Notes: generated by a model from the sequence alone, not told the origin. DNA of 8,455 nucleotides from a virus (IMGVR_UViG_2617270953_000002), one strand, 5' to 3'. Counted from the first letter of the stretch, positions 1 through 6,678 are shown. Numbers and translations: made by a program.

Positions 1-329
1 CGCTGTGGCGGCGTAAGAGGCCCCGGAACGTTATCGTTCACACGGACCGTGGAGGCCAGTACTGTTCAGCAGATTATCAGGCGCAACTGAAGCGGCATAA
101 TCTGCGTGGAAGTATGAGCGCAAAAGGTTGCTGCTACGATAATGCCTGCGTGGAAAGCTTCTTTCATTCGCTGAAAGTGGAATGTATCCATGGAGAACAC
201 TTTATCAGCCGGGAAATAATGCGGGCAACGGTGTTTAATTATATCGAATGTGATTACAATCGGTGGCGGCGGCACAGTTGGTGTGGCGGCCTCAGTCCGG
301 AACAATTTGAAAACAAGAACCTCGCTTAG
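1..329 (+). CDS. IS3-family transposase OrfB (DDE catalytic subunit), C-terminal fragment; 5' end lies outside the window
   Basis: Reading from nt 3 gives ...[54 protein letters not shown]...YNRWRRHS...[11 protein letters not shown], ending at TAG 327-329. The HTDRGxQY, CxDNA..ESFF..LK and YNR.RRHS motifs are the typical C-terminus of IS3-family DDE transposases; the tail resembles IS600. Recognised from memory. Confidence 0.85.
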
Positions 330-359
330 GCCTGTGTCCATATTACGTGGGTAGGATCA
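330..359. repeat. IS right terminal inverted repeat (IRR), ends with CA at nt 359
   Basis: Sequence gcctgtgtccatattacgtgggtaggatca directly follows the transposase stop and has the TG...CA termini and TGGACAC core typical of IS3-group IRs. The exact boundary is inferred, not confirmed against the left end. Confidence 0.6.
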
Positions 360-1551
360 TATGGCCCATAATCTGCGCAACAATACCTGTTGGTACTTCG
401 ACCCATTCAGCGAGGGTCCCAAAACTACGGCGCAATCCGTGCAAGCTGATATGTGGTAACTCCGCGCGAGTTAATGCTCTATTATGTGCTGAACGCGGTT
501 CAATAATTTTGCCACTTTTGCTGTTACTTCTGAAAACCCAATTCTCCTCGTTTGTACCACGATTGGGGATCTCCATCAGTGAGCGTAACAAGTCAGAAAC
601 ATAGGGAGTGAGGGGGATAATTCGCTCGCCTTCGATCTTGTCTTTAATTCTCATGCTTGACCATTTGAAATCTATGTCAGACCAGCGAAGTGAGGAAATT
701 TCTTCACGCCGTGCACCGGTGAGCAAAAGCACTTGGAGATAGGCTGATGCAATGGGATTATTGAGGCTACGCACGGCACTGAACCAGCTTTTGAGCTGTT
801 CTTTTTGTAAGCAATCTCCCGCTTTGCTCGCTGATATTGGAACCATTTTTCTCACGTTATGATCTTGTGCAAGATCGCCATCGATTATTCCCTGATATTT
901 TTTCTGGTAATTAGCCCATTTGATGAATGCACGCAACAGACGGTAGGCATGAGCAGTGACGGTAGGCCGATTTTGTCTCTCTGTACTTAGCCATTCGGCA
1001 ATGTTCTCTGGTGTTAGTTCTGATAATGGTCGGTCGAGCAGGCTAGCCAGTGGCCCAGGTGAGGTTGGGCCCCGGCCTCTTTTTTTACTTTCGCCTCCAC
1101 GACTGGACAAGTTAACGTGATCGGCAATGTAGCGTGCAGAGTAGGGGCGTTTAGTTTTTGCGCTGATTCCGGTTCTCAATTCATCAAGATAATCTTCCCA
1201 AGCGCTTGAAAAGGTTGCCTTCGTTTTACGAGATTCAGCCTGCTGTGATTCCGCTTCAGCAATTTTTTCCGCCTTAGCTATACGCGGATCTATCCCAGTA
1301 TCGATTAATGTTTGCAGTCGCCTGGCTTCGGCCCTCGCATCATCAATCCTCCAATCGTTAATGTTGCCAATGGTCATGCGAAGGGTTTTTCCCGCATACA
1401 GGCTTTGGAATACAAAGGCTTTTGCTCCACGAGTTGCTCGACATGCCAAGCTTGTTACGTCCGTATCCCAAAGGAAAACTTGGTTTTTCCCTTCAGGTAA
1501 AGTAAATCTTCGAATTCGTTCGAAGGTTAGTTTTTGTCTTGAAAGCGCCAT
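343..1551 (-). pseudogene. int: Tyrosine recombinase (phage/island integrase), C-terminally truncated by the IS; the last five codons and stop come from IS sequence
   Basis: 402-aa ORF with ATG at 1551 and AGGAA about 9 nt upstream. It has box I (LLLTGARREEISSLRWSDID) and box II (LHGLRRSFGTLAEW...AQIMGH), but the ORF stops 5 codons after the GH, with the junction at nt 359/360 inside the Met codon. The catalytic Tyr expected about 10 residues later is absent. Confidence 0.75.
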
Positions 1552-1734
1552 TTTTAGGGTTCCTGTTGGGGATTACGGTTTACAGTAATGTAACGGCTGG
1601 TGTAAGTAAATTGAAAGGATAAACATCAACACTCATCAATTTACATCAACAGGTTTTTTGTTTTAATATTATGATTTAAAATGATAAATTTGTGATTTCT
1701 GATGGTTGTTCAAGCAGTTAAAATATAAAAACTT

Positions 1735-1783
1735 CGCATTCGTAATGCGAAGGTCGTAGGTTCGACTCCTATTATCGGCACCA
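1735..1783 (+). other. 3' fragment (about 49 nt) of tRNA-Thr(CGU), thrW-like: anticodon arm, variable loop, T-arm, acceptor 3' strand and CCA. An att core/direct repeat, not a complete tRNA gene
   Basis: cgcattcgtaatgcgaaggtcgtaggttcgactcctattatcggcacca: anticodon loop TTCGTAA (anticodon CGT), T-stem GTAGG/CCTAT, T-loop TTCGACT, acceptor TATCGGC + A + CCA. The preceding bases (aaaatataaaaactt) carry no D-arm or 5' acceptor strand. The 5' boundary is approximate (1733-1737). Confidence 0.8.
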
Positions 1784-3182: not shown

Positions 3183-3267
3183 TTGGAATCTCCATTTATT
3201 GAGTTGGTATTATTGCGGTAGGTCTGGATATCTTGAGAAATGAACAGGCCTCATCGAGTGTGAGGCG

Positions 3268-3612
3268 TTAGTCCTTGCGTAGCTCGCTGATTCTTCTGTA
3301 AGTCTCTGGTGCTTTGTTCCCGTACGTCTTCATTTCAGACTTCAACAGAGCAACGAGTGAATCCCATTCGTTGAGGATTCCTTTGAATGCCGGAACGCGC
3401 TTTGCAACCTTGTCGAATGAATCTCTGATTTCTGGAATCTGCTCAACAAGTGCAACGCATCGTCGGAAATCTGCTGCGTCATGTGGAGCGCCGAAGTGAT
3501 GACCATAGATATTCTTTTTCAGTCCACATGCGATTGAGGCAATAGTTGCGCTACTGATGCCGACATCGCCAGTCGATTGCCATTTCAAAACCTTCATAGC
3601 CAAATCTGACAT
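3268..3612 (-). CDS. Hypothetical prophage accessory protein, 114 aa
   Basis: ORF-track ORF 3268..3639 trimmed to the internal ATG at 3612, which is preceded by GGAGA with about 7 nt spacing. The longer N-terminal extension would run through the terminator hairpin. No family recognised. Confidence 0.6.
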   Translation of the reverse strand: MSDLAMKVLKWQSTGDVGISSATIASIACGLKKNIYGHHFGAPHDAADFRRCVALVEQIPEIRDSFDKVAKRVPAFKGILNEWDSLVALLKSEMKTYGNKAPETYRRISELRKD

Positions 3613-3623
3613 TTCTTGTCTCC

Positions 3624-3648
3624 AATAAAAAACCGCCATCAGGCGGCT
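3624..3648 (-). terminator. Putative intrinsic (rho-independent) terminator on the minus strand
   Basis: Minus strand reads AGCCGCC-tgat-GGCGGTT followed by TTTTTTTATT: a 5-7 bp GC stem, 4-nt loop and U-run, 65-90 nt downstream of the stop of the 3713..3892 gene. The stem is short, so strength is uncertain. Confidence 0.45.
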
Positions 3649-3712
3649 TGGTGTTCTTTCAGTTCTTCAATTCGAATATTGGTTACATTGTTTTCATATA
3701 TGAATAAATAAA

Positions 3713-3892
3713 TTAGCTTTTTTCGTTGCCTTCGCTTTCTTTATTAATTTTGACAAACTCGTTTTTACCACGCTCTCCAAATGCGTCTTTAGAGTCGTTG
3801 TATCCGCAATCGCAGCACACATAATCATCAGACCATCCACGCATTGTTTTTTCTTTTGCAATATTTCCAGAACCGCATTTTGGACAAGACAT
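3713..3892 (-). CDS. Small zinc-ribbon protein (CPxCG ... CCDCG), 59 aa, moron-like
   Basis: ORF 3713..3925 trimmed to the ATG at 3892, which is preceded by GGAGGT about 8 nt upstream. Product MSCPKCGSGN...YVCCDCGYND has two Cys pairs spaced for a zinc ribbon. The locus is strongly AT-rich. Confidence 0.6.
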   Translation of the reverse strand: MSCPKCGSGNIAKEKTMRGWSDDYVCCDCGYNDSKDAFGERGKNEFVKINKESEGNEKS

Positions 3893-3988
3893 ATCACTAC
3901 CTCCAAAGCATGAGTGAGATGACAACGTAACATTGATTGGAGATTAACAATAGATTGCTGATGTAAAAGATATGTATAAGCTTCGCTT

Positions 3989-4627
3989 TCAAAGTGGAGG
4001 CTCTGGTAGCGGCATCCAGTGTGACGGCTCACATACCCCCTCAACACCATTCATGTAAAAGAATTGAAATAACCCATTACCTTTGTGAAACCCTACCATC
4101 TGCTCTTTAGTGTCTGAGCAATAAACCAAAACATCTTCTTCGTTTGGCATTCGATCACTACAGCTTATCCAACCATCAGGAGTTACCGGAGAGTTGCCAC
4201 CGGGAATATTTTCCGGAATATTTTGTTGTGCGTTTTGTGGTTGTTCGGATTTACCCTGAAGCATGGCGGCGCGGCAGGCGTTCCAGCCAGCTGTTCGCCC
4301 AAGCGCGTAAACTTCAGATGGCTCAAGATAATCAATGTCATGCCCATCCTCATCGTCGTTCTCAGGTAATGCAGCAGGTACTACCGGTACTGGCGGAGCG
4401 GCGTAGACTTCAATAATCCCATTATCAATAGGCCATTCCCCATCCTTGATGTAGTCACTTGTGCCGTCAACTTGCTGTTCTGCAATGTGGAATGCGCCAA
4501 TAGGCTCTGCTTCCAGCGATGCCAGTGCGATTTCATAAGCCCGACGCTCAATATTGTCTCGGACGTCCAGGCTGCCTATACGCTCTTTGATTTCTTTAAT
4601 CAGTTCTTTGTCGGTGAACGTTGTCAT
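3989..4627 (-). CDS. DUF551-domain prophage protein with an N-terminal helical domain and Pro-rich/acidic linker, 212 aa
   Basis: ATG at 4627 with AAGGA about 8 nt upstream. The C-terminal segment PDGWISCSDRMPNEEDVLVYC...GVCEPSHWMPLPEPP matches the DUF551 signature common in lambdoid 'ea' regions (from memory). The central linker is AAPPVPVVPAALPENDDEDGHDIDY. Confidence 0.75.
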   Translation of the reverse strand: MTTFTDKELIKEIKERIGSLDVRDNIERRAYEIALASLEAEPIGAFHIAEQQVDGTSDYIKDGEWPIDNGIIEVYAAPPVPVVPAALPENDDEDGHDIDYLEPSEVYALGRTAGWNACRAAMLQGKSEQPQNAQQNIPENIPGGNSPVTPDGWISCSDRMPNEEDVLVYCSDTKEQMVGFHKGNGLFQFFYMNGVEGVCEPSHWMPLPEPPL

Positions 4628-4637
4628 GTGTTAGTCC

Positions 4638-4901
4638 TTATCCTGCTGTGCTTTCAACTGATGAGGGGAATAAAATCTTTTCATCAAATCCGGCATTCAT
4701 ATCATGGACAGCAACACACCAATCCACCGACGAACGATTATCAAGAGCCTCCATGATTTCATCCATGCGGCGTAGGTCATAAAGGTAAATGCTTTTATCG
4801 CCAATGGTGTAAAAACCAATTTTTTTCGGTGATGGACAGCGATCAAGAACGTCCTGTAATTCGCTCAACCATGCTTGTTCTTTTTTTGTCAAAGTTGCCA
4901 T
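4638..4901 (-). CDS. Hypothetical prophage protein, 87 aa
   Basis: ATG at 4901 preceded by AAAGGAGA 6-7 nt upstream; the start lies 1 nt after the TGA of the upstream gene. No family recognised. Confidence 0.65.
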   Translation of the reverse strand: MATLTKKEQAWLSELQDVLDRCPSPKKIGFYTIGDKSIYLYDLRRMDEIMEALDNRSSVDWCVAVHDMNAGFDEKILFPSSVESTAG

Positions 4902-4902
4902 A

Positions 4903-5394
4903 TCACTCTCCTTTGATGCGAATGCCAGTGGTACTCATTCTCCTGATTTCCCAGAGCACACGAGGAACACCACCGTTTCCGACCGGATCGCGCTTACTCC
5001 GCATGGCGACGCTTGATTCCGCCCAGCTTTTTCTTGGAGGAAGCTCTTTCACACGAACAAAACCAGCTGCGCGAAGAGATGCTCCTGATTCATCTGCCTG
5101 GGTGTACGTAATACAACGTTGATAACCCATAGCCTTTGCTGCCCGCCAGACAGCACCATAAAGCGCGCTGTTAGCGTTGCGTTCTCCTGTGGTACATGTG
5201 CGATTTACTTCAAGCGTTAATCCATCGTCCAAATGTCGTGCAACAGGTCGACCAGCTGTCGCCACACCTATCAATTCTCCGGCATTATTTCTCAGACCAA
5301 TGCTGAATTTATGCCCCACTGGTGGTTTATTGTGTCGGTGGTGCTGTGCGATAAATTCCTGCGCCGCTTTCAGCGTTATAGGTGAAATGACCAT
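4903..5394 (-). CDS. Conserved prophage protein, 163 aa; possibly an acyl-CoA N-acyltransferase (GNAT-like) fold, assignment unverified
   Basis: ATG at 5394 overlaps the TGA of the upstream gene (TGATG), with AAGGAGGAG about 9 nt upstream. The ORF-track GTG at 5397 is one codon further upstream. Sequence shows HHRHNKPPVGHKF...LIGVATAGRPVARHLDDGLTLEVNRT...SALYGAVWRAAKAMGYQRCITYTQADESGASLRAAGF. The fold call is pattern intuition only. Confidence 0.7.
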   Translation of the reverse strand: MVISPITLKAAQEFIAQHHRHNKPPVGHKFSIGLRNNAGELIGVATAGRPVARHLDDGLTLEVNRTCTTGERNANSALYGAVWRAAKAMGYQRCITYTQADESGASLRAAGFVRVKELPPRKSWAESSVAMRSKRDPVGNGGVPRVLWEIRRMSTTGIRIKGE

Positions 5395-5873
5395 CACTCA
5401 GACTCCTCCTTGATGCCAGCGGCGCGGGAATCATTCCATCGCTTTACTTCTTCACTAATTACGTCAATGCATTCTTTCGAATCCATTAGGTAATCTTCAT
5501 CAAAAAGACGTTCCTGTTCGTTTTCTATCGCAACAATGATTGCTTCAACTAATTTTTGTGCCTGAGAATCACTTTCTAACTCTGCAATGCGCTTACTCCC
5601 ATCCGAGATAACACCTTCGTAATACTCACGCTGCTCGTTGAGTTTTGATTTTGTCTCCTCAAGCTCAACACGCAGCTTCCCTACCGTTAGCGCAATATCC
5701 TCGTTCTCCTGGTCGCGGCGTTTGATGTATTGCTGGTTTCTTTCCCGTTCATCCAGTAGTGCCAGCACAACCTGAGGTGTGACCTTCATACGAAATGCCA
5801 GCAATTTTTGTGGTGTGGCTGCTATTTTTATTGCTTCTGCCGCATCACGCAGTGCCTGATAGTCAATTGTCAT
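5394..5873 (-). CDS. Ead/Ea22-like early protein (coiled-coil), 159 aa
   Basis: N-terminus [22 protein letters not shown] matches the Ead/Ea22-like family start found in P22/lambda-type early regions (from memory); the centre is a charged coiled-coil-like segment. ATG at 5873 overlaps the upstream TGA (ATGA), with GAAGGA about 8 nt upstream. The ORF track starts 3 codons earlier. Confidence 0.7.
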   Translation of the reverse strand: MTIDYQALRDAAEAIKIAATPQKLLAFRMKVTPQVVLALLDERERNQQYIKRRDQENEDIALTVGKLRVELEETKSKLNEQREYYEGVISDGSKRIAELESDSQAQKLVEAIIVAIENEQERLFDEDYLMDSKECIDVISEEVKRWNDSRAAGIKEESE

Positions 5874-6514
5874 TCTCGCCATCCTTCACAGTTGTAATCA
5901 CTACAGCCTTCAAAATCATATGGGCTGTACTGCCAGGAGATTTTTCCGCAATGCGGACAATTCCAACGCACCTTCCCGCTTCGCGACTTCTTTCTTCTGT
6001 TCTGCTCTTTCAACCAGTCAGGCATGACCAAACCTGCGCCCTGAACCATTGTTCTGCGGTTAAAGTTATTGATATTGAACGTCCTGCGCTTTGCTGCATC
6101 AGCAATGGAAAATGGCAACCAAACTATTCCTGGTTCGTTTTTGTTGGCGACGCTAAAGATGGTCGCTTTACTGAAGTCATCTGTTGGCAATCCACCGTGT
6201 TGAAGCCAGTAAACATCGTTGCCGTTCCAGCTACCTTTTTTGTAGGCCACATACGCAGTGCAATCTGACTCAATCAGGCTTTCTGTAGGGATGTACTGGC
6301 AATCAACGTGCCACACTGCCATTGCATCCACGCTATCAGCGCAAACAGGCTGATCGATATCTCGCCCACAATTCCAGGCTTTTTGGGCTTCTTCCAGCGT
6401 GTAAACATGAGCGCGATCGATATCAGAACTGTAACCATTGCCGTTATGGCAATGGAATGAAGCGTTATTGCCCACAGTTTCACGCGAGCACATCATGTAA
6501 AAACGGTTAGTCAC
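5870..6514 (-). CDS. Hypothetical Cys/His-rich prophage protein, 214 aa, with a C-terminal zinc-ribbon-like motif
   Basis: Probable GTG start at 6514 overlapping the upstream TGA (GTGA), with strong AAGGAGG 6 nt upstream. The ORF-track start at 6535 is also GTG but lacks an SD. N-terminal [10 protein letters not shown]; C-terminal [11 protein letters not shown]...CSDYNCEGW. No family recognised. Confidence 0.7.
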
Positions 6515-6678
6515 TGGCTGCCTCCTTTGCGCCACATCGCATTCAGATATTTGTTTTCATTCACTGATGGAAAAGAATTTCTCTTAAGTAATTCCTCTCT
6601 CGATGGCATTGGCTTTACGCGTTGGCGAATAATCATTTCTGCCGGAAGAATGCCGGGATTGTATGCAAGTCCTCTCAT
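6511..6678 (-). CDS. Small hypothetical protein, 55 aa, translationally coupled to neighbours
   Basis: ATG at 6678 preceded by GAGGAA (about 7 nt spacing) which overlaps the TGA of the 6689..6982 gene. Its own TGA overlaps the GTG of the next gene. The ORF-track version (105 aa) has an N-terminal extension overlapping the upstream gene. Confidence 0.5.

Follow-up and report, generated by a model that had tools for sequence, protein, structure and literature searches.

A 59-codon reading frame on the minus strand of a viral contig (IMGVR_UViG_2617270953_000002) raises the question of what kind of genetic unit a small, AT-rich gene forms when it stands apart from its neighbours with a hairpin behind it. 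The whole stretch of DNA that was analysed, 8,455 nt long, is called the window here. A first-pass annotation read the frame, its ribosome-binding site and the hairpin as a laterally acquired moron. A moron is a promoter-gene-terminator unit lying between genes that are adjacent in relatives, as described for HK97/HK022-type phages. Comparison with phage and prophage records points elsewhere: the locus is quite probably the eaG module of a P22/lambda-type prophage, lying in the variable distal part of the early-left (pL) exo-xis/ea region, read from pL and followed by a hairpin that serves both as a stop and as an exchange joint.

The eaG gene and its surroundings

Judged from its sequence, the flagged frame is the catalogued eaG of P22 and its relatives ('Eag protein') and is not new. 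A megablast search with positions 3560-4060 matched 198 phage records, and 3606-4021 is 97.6% identical in nucleotides to Salmonella phage P22, whose curated records call the ORF eaG (BK000583) or label it 'EaG(?)' (L06296). The encoded protein, MSCPKCGSGNIAKEKTMRGWSDDYVCCDCGYNDSKDAFGERGKNEFVKINKESEGNEKS, differs from P22 EaG by three residues and from HK620 EaG by one, and matches phrog_2945 over residues 1-58 (E=4.2e-31). At 95% identity or more, eaG occurs in 39 phage records, with coding-sequence nucleotide identities of 97.5-99%, and in 329 E. coli genomes, annotated as 'Eag protein'. P22 eaG (NP_059587 / AAC18881) and HK620 hkaD share with the present locus the gene itself, the leader, the ribosome-binding site, the downstream hairpin and the place in the genome.

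Gene order tells the same story. Along the minus strand, the window carries Erf-like, SSB-like, Ea22-type, Mom-like, 87-aa and DUF551 genes, then eaG, the hairpin, a 114-aa gene, an HTH excisionase-like gene and int, which places eaG two genes upstream of xis and int. P22 reads eaA (DUF551-type), eaG, terminator, eaC, xis and int, and the succession of an EaA/DUF551 or Ea22-type gene, eaG, hairpin and xis/int is common to P22, HK620, HK629, a further locus (L006) and the present stretch. In two lineages (P0037 and P0038) divergent homologues stand at the corresponding position, preceded by recT/ea22-type genes and followed by int. At 1745-1767 lies the attP core of P22, ATGCGAAGGTCGTAGGTTCGACT, as quoted in PMC8022706; it shows where the prophage ends, within a thrW-type tRNA fragment.

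The present locus also departs from P22 on both sides of the gene. Its DUF551 gene is unlike that of P22 except over the last 33 nt, and a 114-aa gene (phrog_1229) follows the terminator where P22 has eaC. The same 114-aa gene stands after orf55 and the hairpin in prophage L005, and after lambda t3/t4-type hairpins in prophage L103. The paI/aI antisense unit of P22 is absent here because it lies inside eaC, which the 114-aa gene replaces. Table 1 collects the features of the module.

Table 1. Features of the eaG module and its downstream neighbour, in window coordinates and in the order of reading
Feature	Position	Strand	Remarks
DUF551 (EaA-type) gene, last ~33 nt (ending HWMPLPEPPL, stop)	3989-4021	minus	5' edge of mosaic module
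Leader, DUF551 stop to eaG ATG	3893-3988	minus	96 nt; 35.4% G+C
Leader motif ACATATCTTTTACA (family consensus ACAYAWCWTTTWCA)	3962-3975	minus	14 nt, ~83 nt 5' of ATG
-10-like hexamer TACGTT	3924-3929	minus	ends 32 nt 5' of ATG
Shine-Dalgarno GGAGG	3900-3904	minus	7 nt 5' of eaG ATG; read directly from sequence
eaG coding sequence	3713-3892	minus	59 aa; modelled Cys4 zinc ribbon (residues 1-40) and predicted charged, disordered tail
AT-rich joint	3687-3712	minus	11.5% G+C; eaG stop to lambda-type sequence; 3' end of eaG-specific DNA
orf55-type remnant, non-coding	3638-3686	minus	15 codons VTNIRIEELKEHQAA and TGA in hairpin loop; lambda match
Intrinsic terminator (predicted), GCCGCC-TGAT-GGCGG and U-run	3624-3649	minus	pattern scan and RNA fold
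114-aa gene, phrog_1229	3268-3612	minus	P22 eaC position, terminator-xis interval; context, outside module

The coding sequence runs from an ATG at 3892 to a TAA at 3715-3713 and begins MSCPKCGS...YVCCDCGY. The gene had been credited with its own Shine-Dalgarno sequence, and the GGAGG is in place at the expected side of the ATG; the P22 record L06296 annotates the equivalent GGAGG as the eaG ribosome-binding site. Between lineages, codons 1-40 show pS values of 0.6-1.0, with synonymous sites saturated, against pN values of 0.05-0.33, and dN/dS is 0.05-0.37 where it can be calculated, dS being saturated. This substitution pattern indicates that eaG is a real gene under purifying selection.

The 96-nt separation from the DUF551 gene (3989-4627; Pfam E=1.5e-18), with its stop at 3989, also agrees with the earlier count. 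The accompanying picture of tightly packed neighbours holds in part: genes across 4638-6535 overlap or lie 1-10 nt apart, but a second gap of 85 nt (3183-3267) occurs two genes downstream of eaG, and the 96-nt gap is not the sole one in the arm. A different view of this gap is that it is itself a small gene, with packing that runs stop-to-start after all. A 31-codon hydrophobic ORF at 3992-3897 fills it exactly, its TTG start overlapping the DUF551 stop and its TAG lying 4 nt before the eaG ATG. The leader of the P0037 lineage holds a 21-codon ORF as well, with a strong AGGAGG coupled to the upstream stop and with some variants that are only synonymous, but this ORF uses a different frame relative to the shared leader motif and encodes an unrelated peptide. 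Read by eye, the corresponding frame in loci L010 and L017 lacks a start codon and is cut by stops, while the leaders of EaG proper are too invariant to gauge coding constraint. The 31-codon ORF, unconserved in the divergent leader sequences inspected by eye, was rejected, and the chance that the gap is a gene appears slim indeed.

The mosaic unit and the predicted terminator

Alignments of phage and prophage loci indicate that eaG travels as a mosaic unit of about 400 bp (4021-3623) and that this unit is one of several that can fill the slot just upstream of a hairpin common to lambdoid phages. The unit comprises the last 33 nt of the DUF551 gene, the leader, eaG, the AT-rich joint and the shared hairpin segment. 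P22, HK620, HK629 and the present stretch are alike downstream from the 4021 edge and unrelated upstream of it. Among 80 eaG-bearing IMG/VR loci, the upstream break in similarity falls within 4020-4027 in 55 loci and around 4190-4203 in another 17; the downstream break falls at 3623-3627 in 42 and past the 114-aa gene in 28.

Homologous prophages that lack the cassette do exist, and they lack it as a replacement between shared joints, not as a clean insertion. In the O157:H7 prophage L103, 187 nt holding lambda t3/t4-type hairpins separate the DUF551 gene from the same 114-aa gene, and eaG is missing; in prophage L005, an orf55-type gene and the hairpin precede that 114-aa gene. L103 thus brings together the genes that flank eaG here, with a spacer that holds other hairpins. 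Nor is the cassette a constant feature of related genomes: eaG is present in 329 of 5426 complete E. coli genomes, as against 2488 with the hairpin segment.

The minus-strand hairpin and U-run reported at 3624-3648 were reproduced by a pattern scan and by RNA folding. The stem (3649-3630) has eight pairs, five of them G-C, around a 4-nt loop and leads into the T-run TTTTTTATT; the fold reaches a dG of -13.4 kcal/mol (z = -2.85), and one of 200 shuffles folds as well. This hairpin is the predicted t5 of the lambda exo-xis region, found there by Erpin and RNAmotif (Bloch et al., Table 4; PMC4195576), and, by identity with lambda, the element labelled t'I in the P22 record L06296. BK000583 annotates the same hairpin as the terminator of the antisense aI RNA. 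The match to lambda t5 covers the hairpin and its upstream flank, and the tails diverge past the T-run.

The idea that this terminator arrived with the gene does not survive comparison. The 64 bp at 3623-3686 are common to lambda, HK022, 434 and Stx phages without eaG, and a search with 3600-3712 alone matched 184 phage records, most of them sharing only 3623-3686. In the complete E. coli genomes, the hairpin segment occurs at 3204 places. Since it is present in so many more genomes than eaG, the terminator is best taken as a shared backbone joint and was not acquired with the gene.

Lambda shows what the segment contains. At 98.4% identity it matches lambda 29102-29165, the coding 3' end of lambdap35/orf55, where the last 15 orf55 codons run into a hairpin whose loop holds the TGA, with the T-run behind it. 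Because these 15 codons stand non-coding in the present stretch, the body of an orf55-type gene seems to have given way to eaG, with the end of that gene persisting as a scar. The 26-nt joint between the eaG stop and this remnant is also found in P22 and is absent from lambda and from the O157 prophage L005. Lambda carries the same 64 bp at the same place, just upstream of its integration and excision genes, and likewise has a small accessory gene directly 5' of the hairpin. The difference is that in lambda the segment codes for the end of orf55, whose alpha/beta product resembles T7 Gp2 in a model (PMC8614690), whereas here the codons are silent and an unrelated zinc-ribbon gene fills the slot.

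Base composition gives a mixed picture as well. The hand counts of the first-pass annotation, about 26% G+C over 3661-3760 and about 53% over 4201-4300, compare with computed values of 26.0% and 54.0%, and only 1.1% of 100-nt windows reach a G+C content as low as that of 3661-3760. The strongly AT-rich island in which the protein was placed calls for a qualification, as the trough is not the gene itself: the minimum arises from the Lys/Asn/Glu-rich tail, the joint and the non-coding remnant. The coding sequence has 38.9% G+C, the 7th percentile of 180-nt windows, in a window with a mean of 46.2%; its last 60 nt have 33%. GC3 is 0.33 for eaG and 0.36-0.52 for its neighbours, and orf87 (4638-4901) has a G+C content nearly as low as that of eaG. 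Across the family the deviation recurs, with homologues 4-12 G+C points below the surrounding locus in all seven lineages checked.

The predicted zinc-ribbon protein

Database searching returned 13 cluster representatives at E<=0.001 among 1.84 billion, which together form a small EaG family. Many of the seemingly divergent matches of the first search are frameshifted copies. True divergent members, at 34-59% identity, keep C3, C6, C26, C29, P4, S8, K13, G19, W20, D23, Y24 and F38. In the CPxCG...CCDCG pattern noted earlier, the four putative ligand cysteines C3, C6, C26 and C29 are invariant in eight diverse members; C27, the second Cys of the CC pair, varies.

An AlphaFold model places strands at residues 11-16, 19-26 and 32-34, with pLDDT values of 79-86 over residues 1-40, and leaves the variable, charged tail disordered. 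The two conserved CxxC knuckles sit on this predicted three-stranded fold, and the prediction for residues 1-40 is one Cys4 zinc ribbon whose GW-x-x-DY loop is invariant. A PDB fold search with the model ranked ribosomal and RNA-polymerase zinc ribbons best, none at E<0.5, and a BFVD fold search returned nothing at E<1e-3. PDB sequence searches gave weak matches to archaeal ribosome-associated zinc ribbons only (E about 0.006-0.04). Pfam matches of the family are all sub-threshold and spread over generic zinc-ribbon models, including HVO_2753, TFIIB, Lar, Zn_ribbon_8 and others, and PADLOC, run on EaG and five neighbours, found no defence-system match.

One of these matches suggests a function, namely that EaG is a distant member of the Lar/RalR group and acts in type I restriction alleviation, as Lar does in Rac, or as a RalR-like DNase toxin. 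The likeness is broad: Lar/RalR of Rac (PF14354) is also a protein of about 60 aa with a CxxC...CxxC pattern encoded between recombination genes and xis/int, and the Rac order recT, ralR, rcbA, xis and int puts ralR in a position analogous to that of eaG. EaG of the present stretch matches the Pfam Lar_restr_allev model at E=1.2e-4, the best value among eight family members, five of which match that model. Several EaG clusters carry a precomputed PF14354 label, BLASTP against RalR gives E=0.003 at 28% identity, and prophage L005 has a Lar-family pseudogene in the corresponding region. The Pfam score of 22.7 bits, however, is below the gathering threshold of 28.6, and the same EaG members match HVO_2753, TFIIB and other zinc-ribbon models as well as or better than Lar. 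A profile-profile comparison with hhalign reached a probability of 4.3% over 26 aligned columns that cover the Cys knuckles only, a weak negative given the shallow RalR profile of seven close sequences. The GW-x-x-DY loop of EaG is missing in RalR, and the RWN motif of RalR is missing in EaG; no RalA-type antisense RNA like that of Rac is annotated here or was found in the Rfam search. NCBI names the protein 'Eag protein', not Lar, and P22-like phages already have ral for type I restriction relief (PMC8022706). Membership in Lar/RalR is very unlikely, and it was rejected as a family assignment after BLASTP, Pfam scans of the eight members and profile-profile comparison, which indicate generic zinc-ribbon similarity.

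In the literature searched no function is reported for EaG, and its sole mention lists the protein as 'Unknown'. Other small zinc proteins of the lambda exo-xis region are Ea8.5, a homeodomain-like/zinc-finger hybrid, and Orf73, a TraR-like C4 protein: both are small, non-essential, early and zinc-binding and come from the same region as EaG. The Pfam and PDB searches with EaG brought up neither family, sequence similarity to the two was not found, and the EaG model is a plain three-stranded ribbon without helices. By analogy with such exo-xis proteins, and because W/Y/F and Lys residues are exposed, one may guess that EaG is a non-essential early factor that would bind a host nucleic-acid-handling machine, or nucleic acid itself, through the aromatic and basic face of the ribbon. 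This guess is much less certain than the identification of the gene.

Expression and a possible control region

Transcription from pL is, on the arrangement seen here, sufficient to explain the expression of eaG. The exo-xis/ea region is transcribed from pL and every gene in it is accessory (BK000583; PMC4195576; PMC8614690), and the early-left operon depends on antitermination by gp24 (PMC8022706). Read-through from pL would be the main route of eaG expression, with translation from the gene's own strong ribosome-binding site. Directly beyond the hairpin, HK620 and HK629 have the cII-dependent integration promoter and xis, which is why the hairpin may be given two roles: to stop polymerase unmodified by the antiterminator before the xis/int block and, because the segment is conserved across phages, to offer a homologous joint for module exchange.

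Some observations tell against this reading of the locus. Leader elements are kept, and some transcription or regulation could start inside the module; the gel-band assignment in the original P22 record is marked 'EaG(?)'; and in four other lineages (L017, L018, L019 and L012) unrelated predicted intrinsic terminators directly 3' of the homologue give the look of a self-contained unit. The family is not confined to the exo-xis region either, as the homologue of lineage P0036 (L010) lies in the nin region of the rightward operon.

The leader itself is nearly identical in P22, HK620 and HK629, with one mismatch, in P22. A search for -35/-10 elements in 3893-3988 had been suggested. A consensus scan of the minus strand finds no sigma-70 promoter there, and the best promoter PWM score in the leader is matched by 36% of shuffles. 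As RNA, the leader folds no better than chance as a single sequence (z = -0.28), and the alignment fold is essentially without consensus structure. An Rfam search of the window at E<=1 returned nothing but a tRNA fragment outside the leader. The TTGC-N6-TTGC signal of a P22-type cI/cII-activated antisense promoter is not enriched and does not occur in the 114-aa gene; LexA boxes are not enriched in the window, with none near eaG; both candidates were rejected.

Two short elements recur across the family, in lineages whose neutral sites are saturated. The 14-nt motif stands at -81 to -84 in five homologue lineages with otherwise diverged leaders, among them one nin-region lineage, and occurs once in the window against an expectation of 0.07. 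It contains TTTACA and has two TACAY-like half-sites one helical turn apart. A search of viral contigs for the exact 14-mer ACACATCTTTTACA gave at least 120 environmental matches, and among the matches listed none precedes a CPxC...CxxC ORF. A scan of genome contigs for relatives returned a single short locus, which was left out of the analysis.

The second element is a hexamer of the form [TC]ANNNT that ends at -31/-32 in nine of nine lineage leaders, where 2000 shuffles reach at most six of nine at any position, a count that speaks for constraint but, since the leaders share ancestry, should not be taken as a probability from independent trials. Other lineages have TATTAT, TATGAT, TATCAT or TATAAT, and the TACGTT of the present stretch is the poorest of the family. 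It could serve translation, as an AU-rich element, or be the -10 element of a promoter that is weak or regulated. Motif and hexamer lie about 32 nt apart and therefore do not make up a single ordinary sigma-70 promoter between them. An operator is one possible reading of the two; others are a promoter that needs an activator and an AU-rich translational element.

These elements carry most of the case for a true moron, in which a weak or activator-dependent leader promoter would drive eaG as an autonomous, pL-independent unit, possibly switched on in the repressed prophage for the benefit of the lysogen. The hexamer kept in all nine lineages, the TTTACA motif near -83 kept in five lineages despite saturated synonymous sites, and a gap of about 90-160 nt 5' of nearly every homologue among otherwise fused genes all favour it, as do the independent terminators of the four lineages named above, the A+T-richness of the gene in every lineage checked, and presence/absence polymorphism at one site. 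Against it, TTTACA and the hexamer do not form a -35/-10 pair with legal spacing, the promoter scans are negative or within shuffles, the hexamer is at its poorest in the present stretch, and the terminator here is common to phages without eaG. The curated P22 and HK620 records annotate no promoter at this place, and a position-fixed AU-rich element 5' of a ribosome-binding site could equally be translational. On balance a true moron is unlikely, though it deserves more weight than the other alternatives.

Comparison with the HK97/HK022 morons leads to a similar division. Like them, eaG is patchy in distribution, A+T-richer than its flanks, followed by a terminator and set apart from packed neighbours; unlike them, it has no demonstrable promoter and shares its terminator with phages that lack the gene. 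It also lies inside an early accessory operon, whereas those morons lie between late structural genes. Judged by the refuting conditions that the first-pass annotation itself set, the moron idea survives. Of that reading, the mosaic unit, the patchy presence, the low G+C content and the four invariant cysteines are supported; the private terminator is not, the promoter scans gave no sigma-70 match better than shuffles, and the coding sequence deviates only mildly in composition. The pL-read eaG module remains the preferred reading.

A bolder proposal is that eaG belongs to an autonomously regulated mini-operon with a private control region, made up of the -83 motif, a -10-like element without a -35 and usually a terminator. 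It would be switched on by a DNA-binding factor and move between leftward and rightward early operons, and its product would act on RNA polymerase, the ribosome or a defence nuclease. This proposal is improbable, more so than a true moron.

For decades the P22 and lambda records have included this gene together with its ribosome-binding site and terminator, and as such the find matters little. Mosaic exchange is textbook lambdoid biology. The locus does offer a concrete case of it, in which a shared 64-bp terminator segment serves as the recombination joint for swapping orf55, eaG and other genes, with the 15-codon scar still visible. The exo-xis region, which reportedly affects both the choice between lysis and lysogeny and the induction of Stx prophages, encodes many small early proteins that await characterisation, EaG among them. 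The conserved leader architecture of the family may be the one potentially new item: its elements, kept despite saturated neutral divergence, would give a defined and cheap handle on the control of such genes.

Prophage end and flanking DNA

The prophage ends at a tRNA-like fragment. Within it lies ATGCGAAGGTCGTAGGTTCGACT, the attP core of P22, which is the attachment site at thrW. Rfam detects this fragment, while ARAGORN calls no tRNA gene there. The G+C minimum of the entire window (21-25%) also falls at this end rather than at eaG, the 59-aa Cys4 zinc-ribbon gene. Immediately outside lies a second integrase, a 402-aa tyrosine recombinase, suggesting that this tRNA site also holds another element, in tandem with the prophage. 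At the window start, the C-terminal portion of a transposase ORF appears, by eye, IS3-family-like.

Positions of features in the window and of the stretches that hold them in the compared loci
Feature	Sequence	Position (strand)	Match
Transposase ORF, C-terminal portion	window	114-329 (+)	
Second tyrosine integrase	window	343-1551 (-)	
G+C minimum	window	around 1600-1750	
tRNA-like fragment	window	1708-1780	Rfam, 36.3 bits
P22 attP core	window	1745-1767	inside tRNA-like fragment
31-codon ORF	window	3897-3992 (-)	
164-aa protein	window	4903-5397 (-)	Pfam Mom, sub-threshold
221-aa protein	window	5870-6535 (-)	
LexA-like box	L104	1672-1760	
LexA-like box	L014/L015	4175-4245	
LexA-like box	L017	1579-1670	
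t3 + t4 hairpins, predicted	lambda (L003)	1800-1870 (lambda 29300-29370)	
t3/t4 hairpin pair	O157:H7 prophage (L103)	2290-2370	

Coding content around eaG and its homologues

Two further proteins are encoded in the accessory region of eaG. For the 164-aa protein, Mom of Pfam is a hit below the cut-off (24.2 bits vs 27.1; E=2.9e-5), and its gene, in the same operon as eaG, is possibly a DNA-modification or acetyltransferase-like accessory gene. The 221-aa protein matches nothing in Pfam or PADLOC; it carries CPHCG...C-x5-C at its C-terminus and is putatively another zinc-binding protein.

A hydrophobic 31-codon ORF, MKAKLIHIFYISNLLLISNQCYVVISLMLWR, exactly fits the 96-nt gap between eaG and the upstream DUF551 gene, starting at a TTG that shares bases with the stop codon of DUF551. 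The divergent loci show no conserved counterpart, and the ORF is probably spurious. In the divergent P0037 lineage (L104-L119), a 21-codon upstream ORF, M[APST]KSAAERKAALTQ[PH]FQFSAA*, occupies about 115-50 nt before the ATG of the eaG homologue. Most loci give it an AGGAGG site, and its own ATG there overlaps the upstream gene's TGA; some variants differ only synonymously. The 14-nt leader motif shared by five homologue lineages lies within this ORF.

The apparent diversity of the eaG family is inflated by frameshifted reads. Five database "homologues" at 54-81% identity (P0019, P0024, P0029, P0032 and P0033) are reads of eaG itself that either shift to the frame overlapping it or run on into the non-coding remnant of orf55 (...NNVTNIRIEELKEHQAA).

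Predicted SOS control and terminators

In three divergent lineages (L104, L014/L015 and L017), the element TTGACA...TACTGTATATAAATACAGT, which reads TACTGTGTATGCATACAGT in L017, precedes the gene 3' of the eaG homologue. The element reads as a near-perfect LexA (SOS) box lying over a predicted promoter; the gene between the eaG homologue and int would accordingly be SOS-controlled in these lineages. No LexA box was found near eaG in the window.

In lambda, the interval from ea8.5 to orf55 holds another two hairpins in tandem (t3 and t4, both predicted), and the O157:H7 prophage has a t3/t4 hairpin pair in place of eaG. Terminators typically flank the small genes of this region on both sides and also act as mosaic joints.
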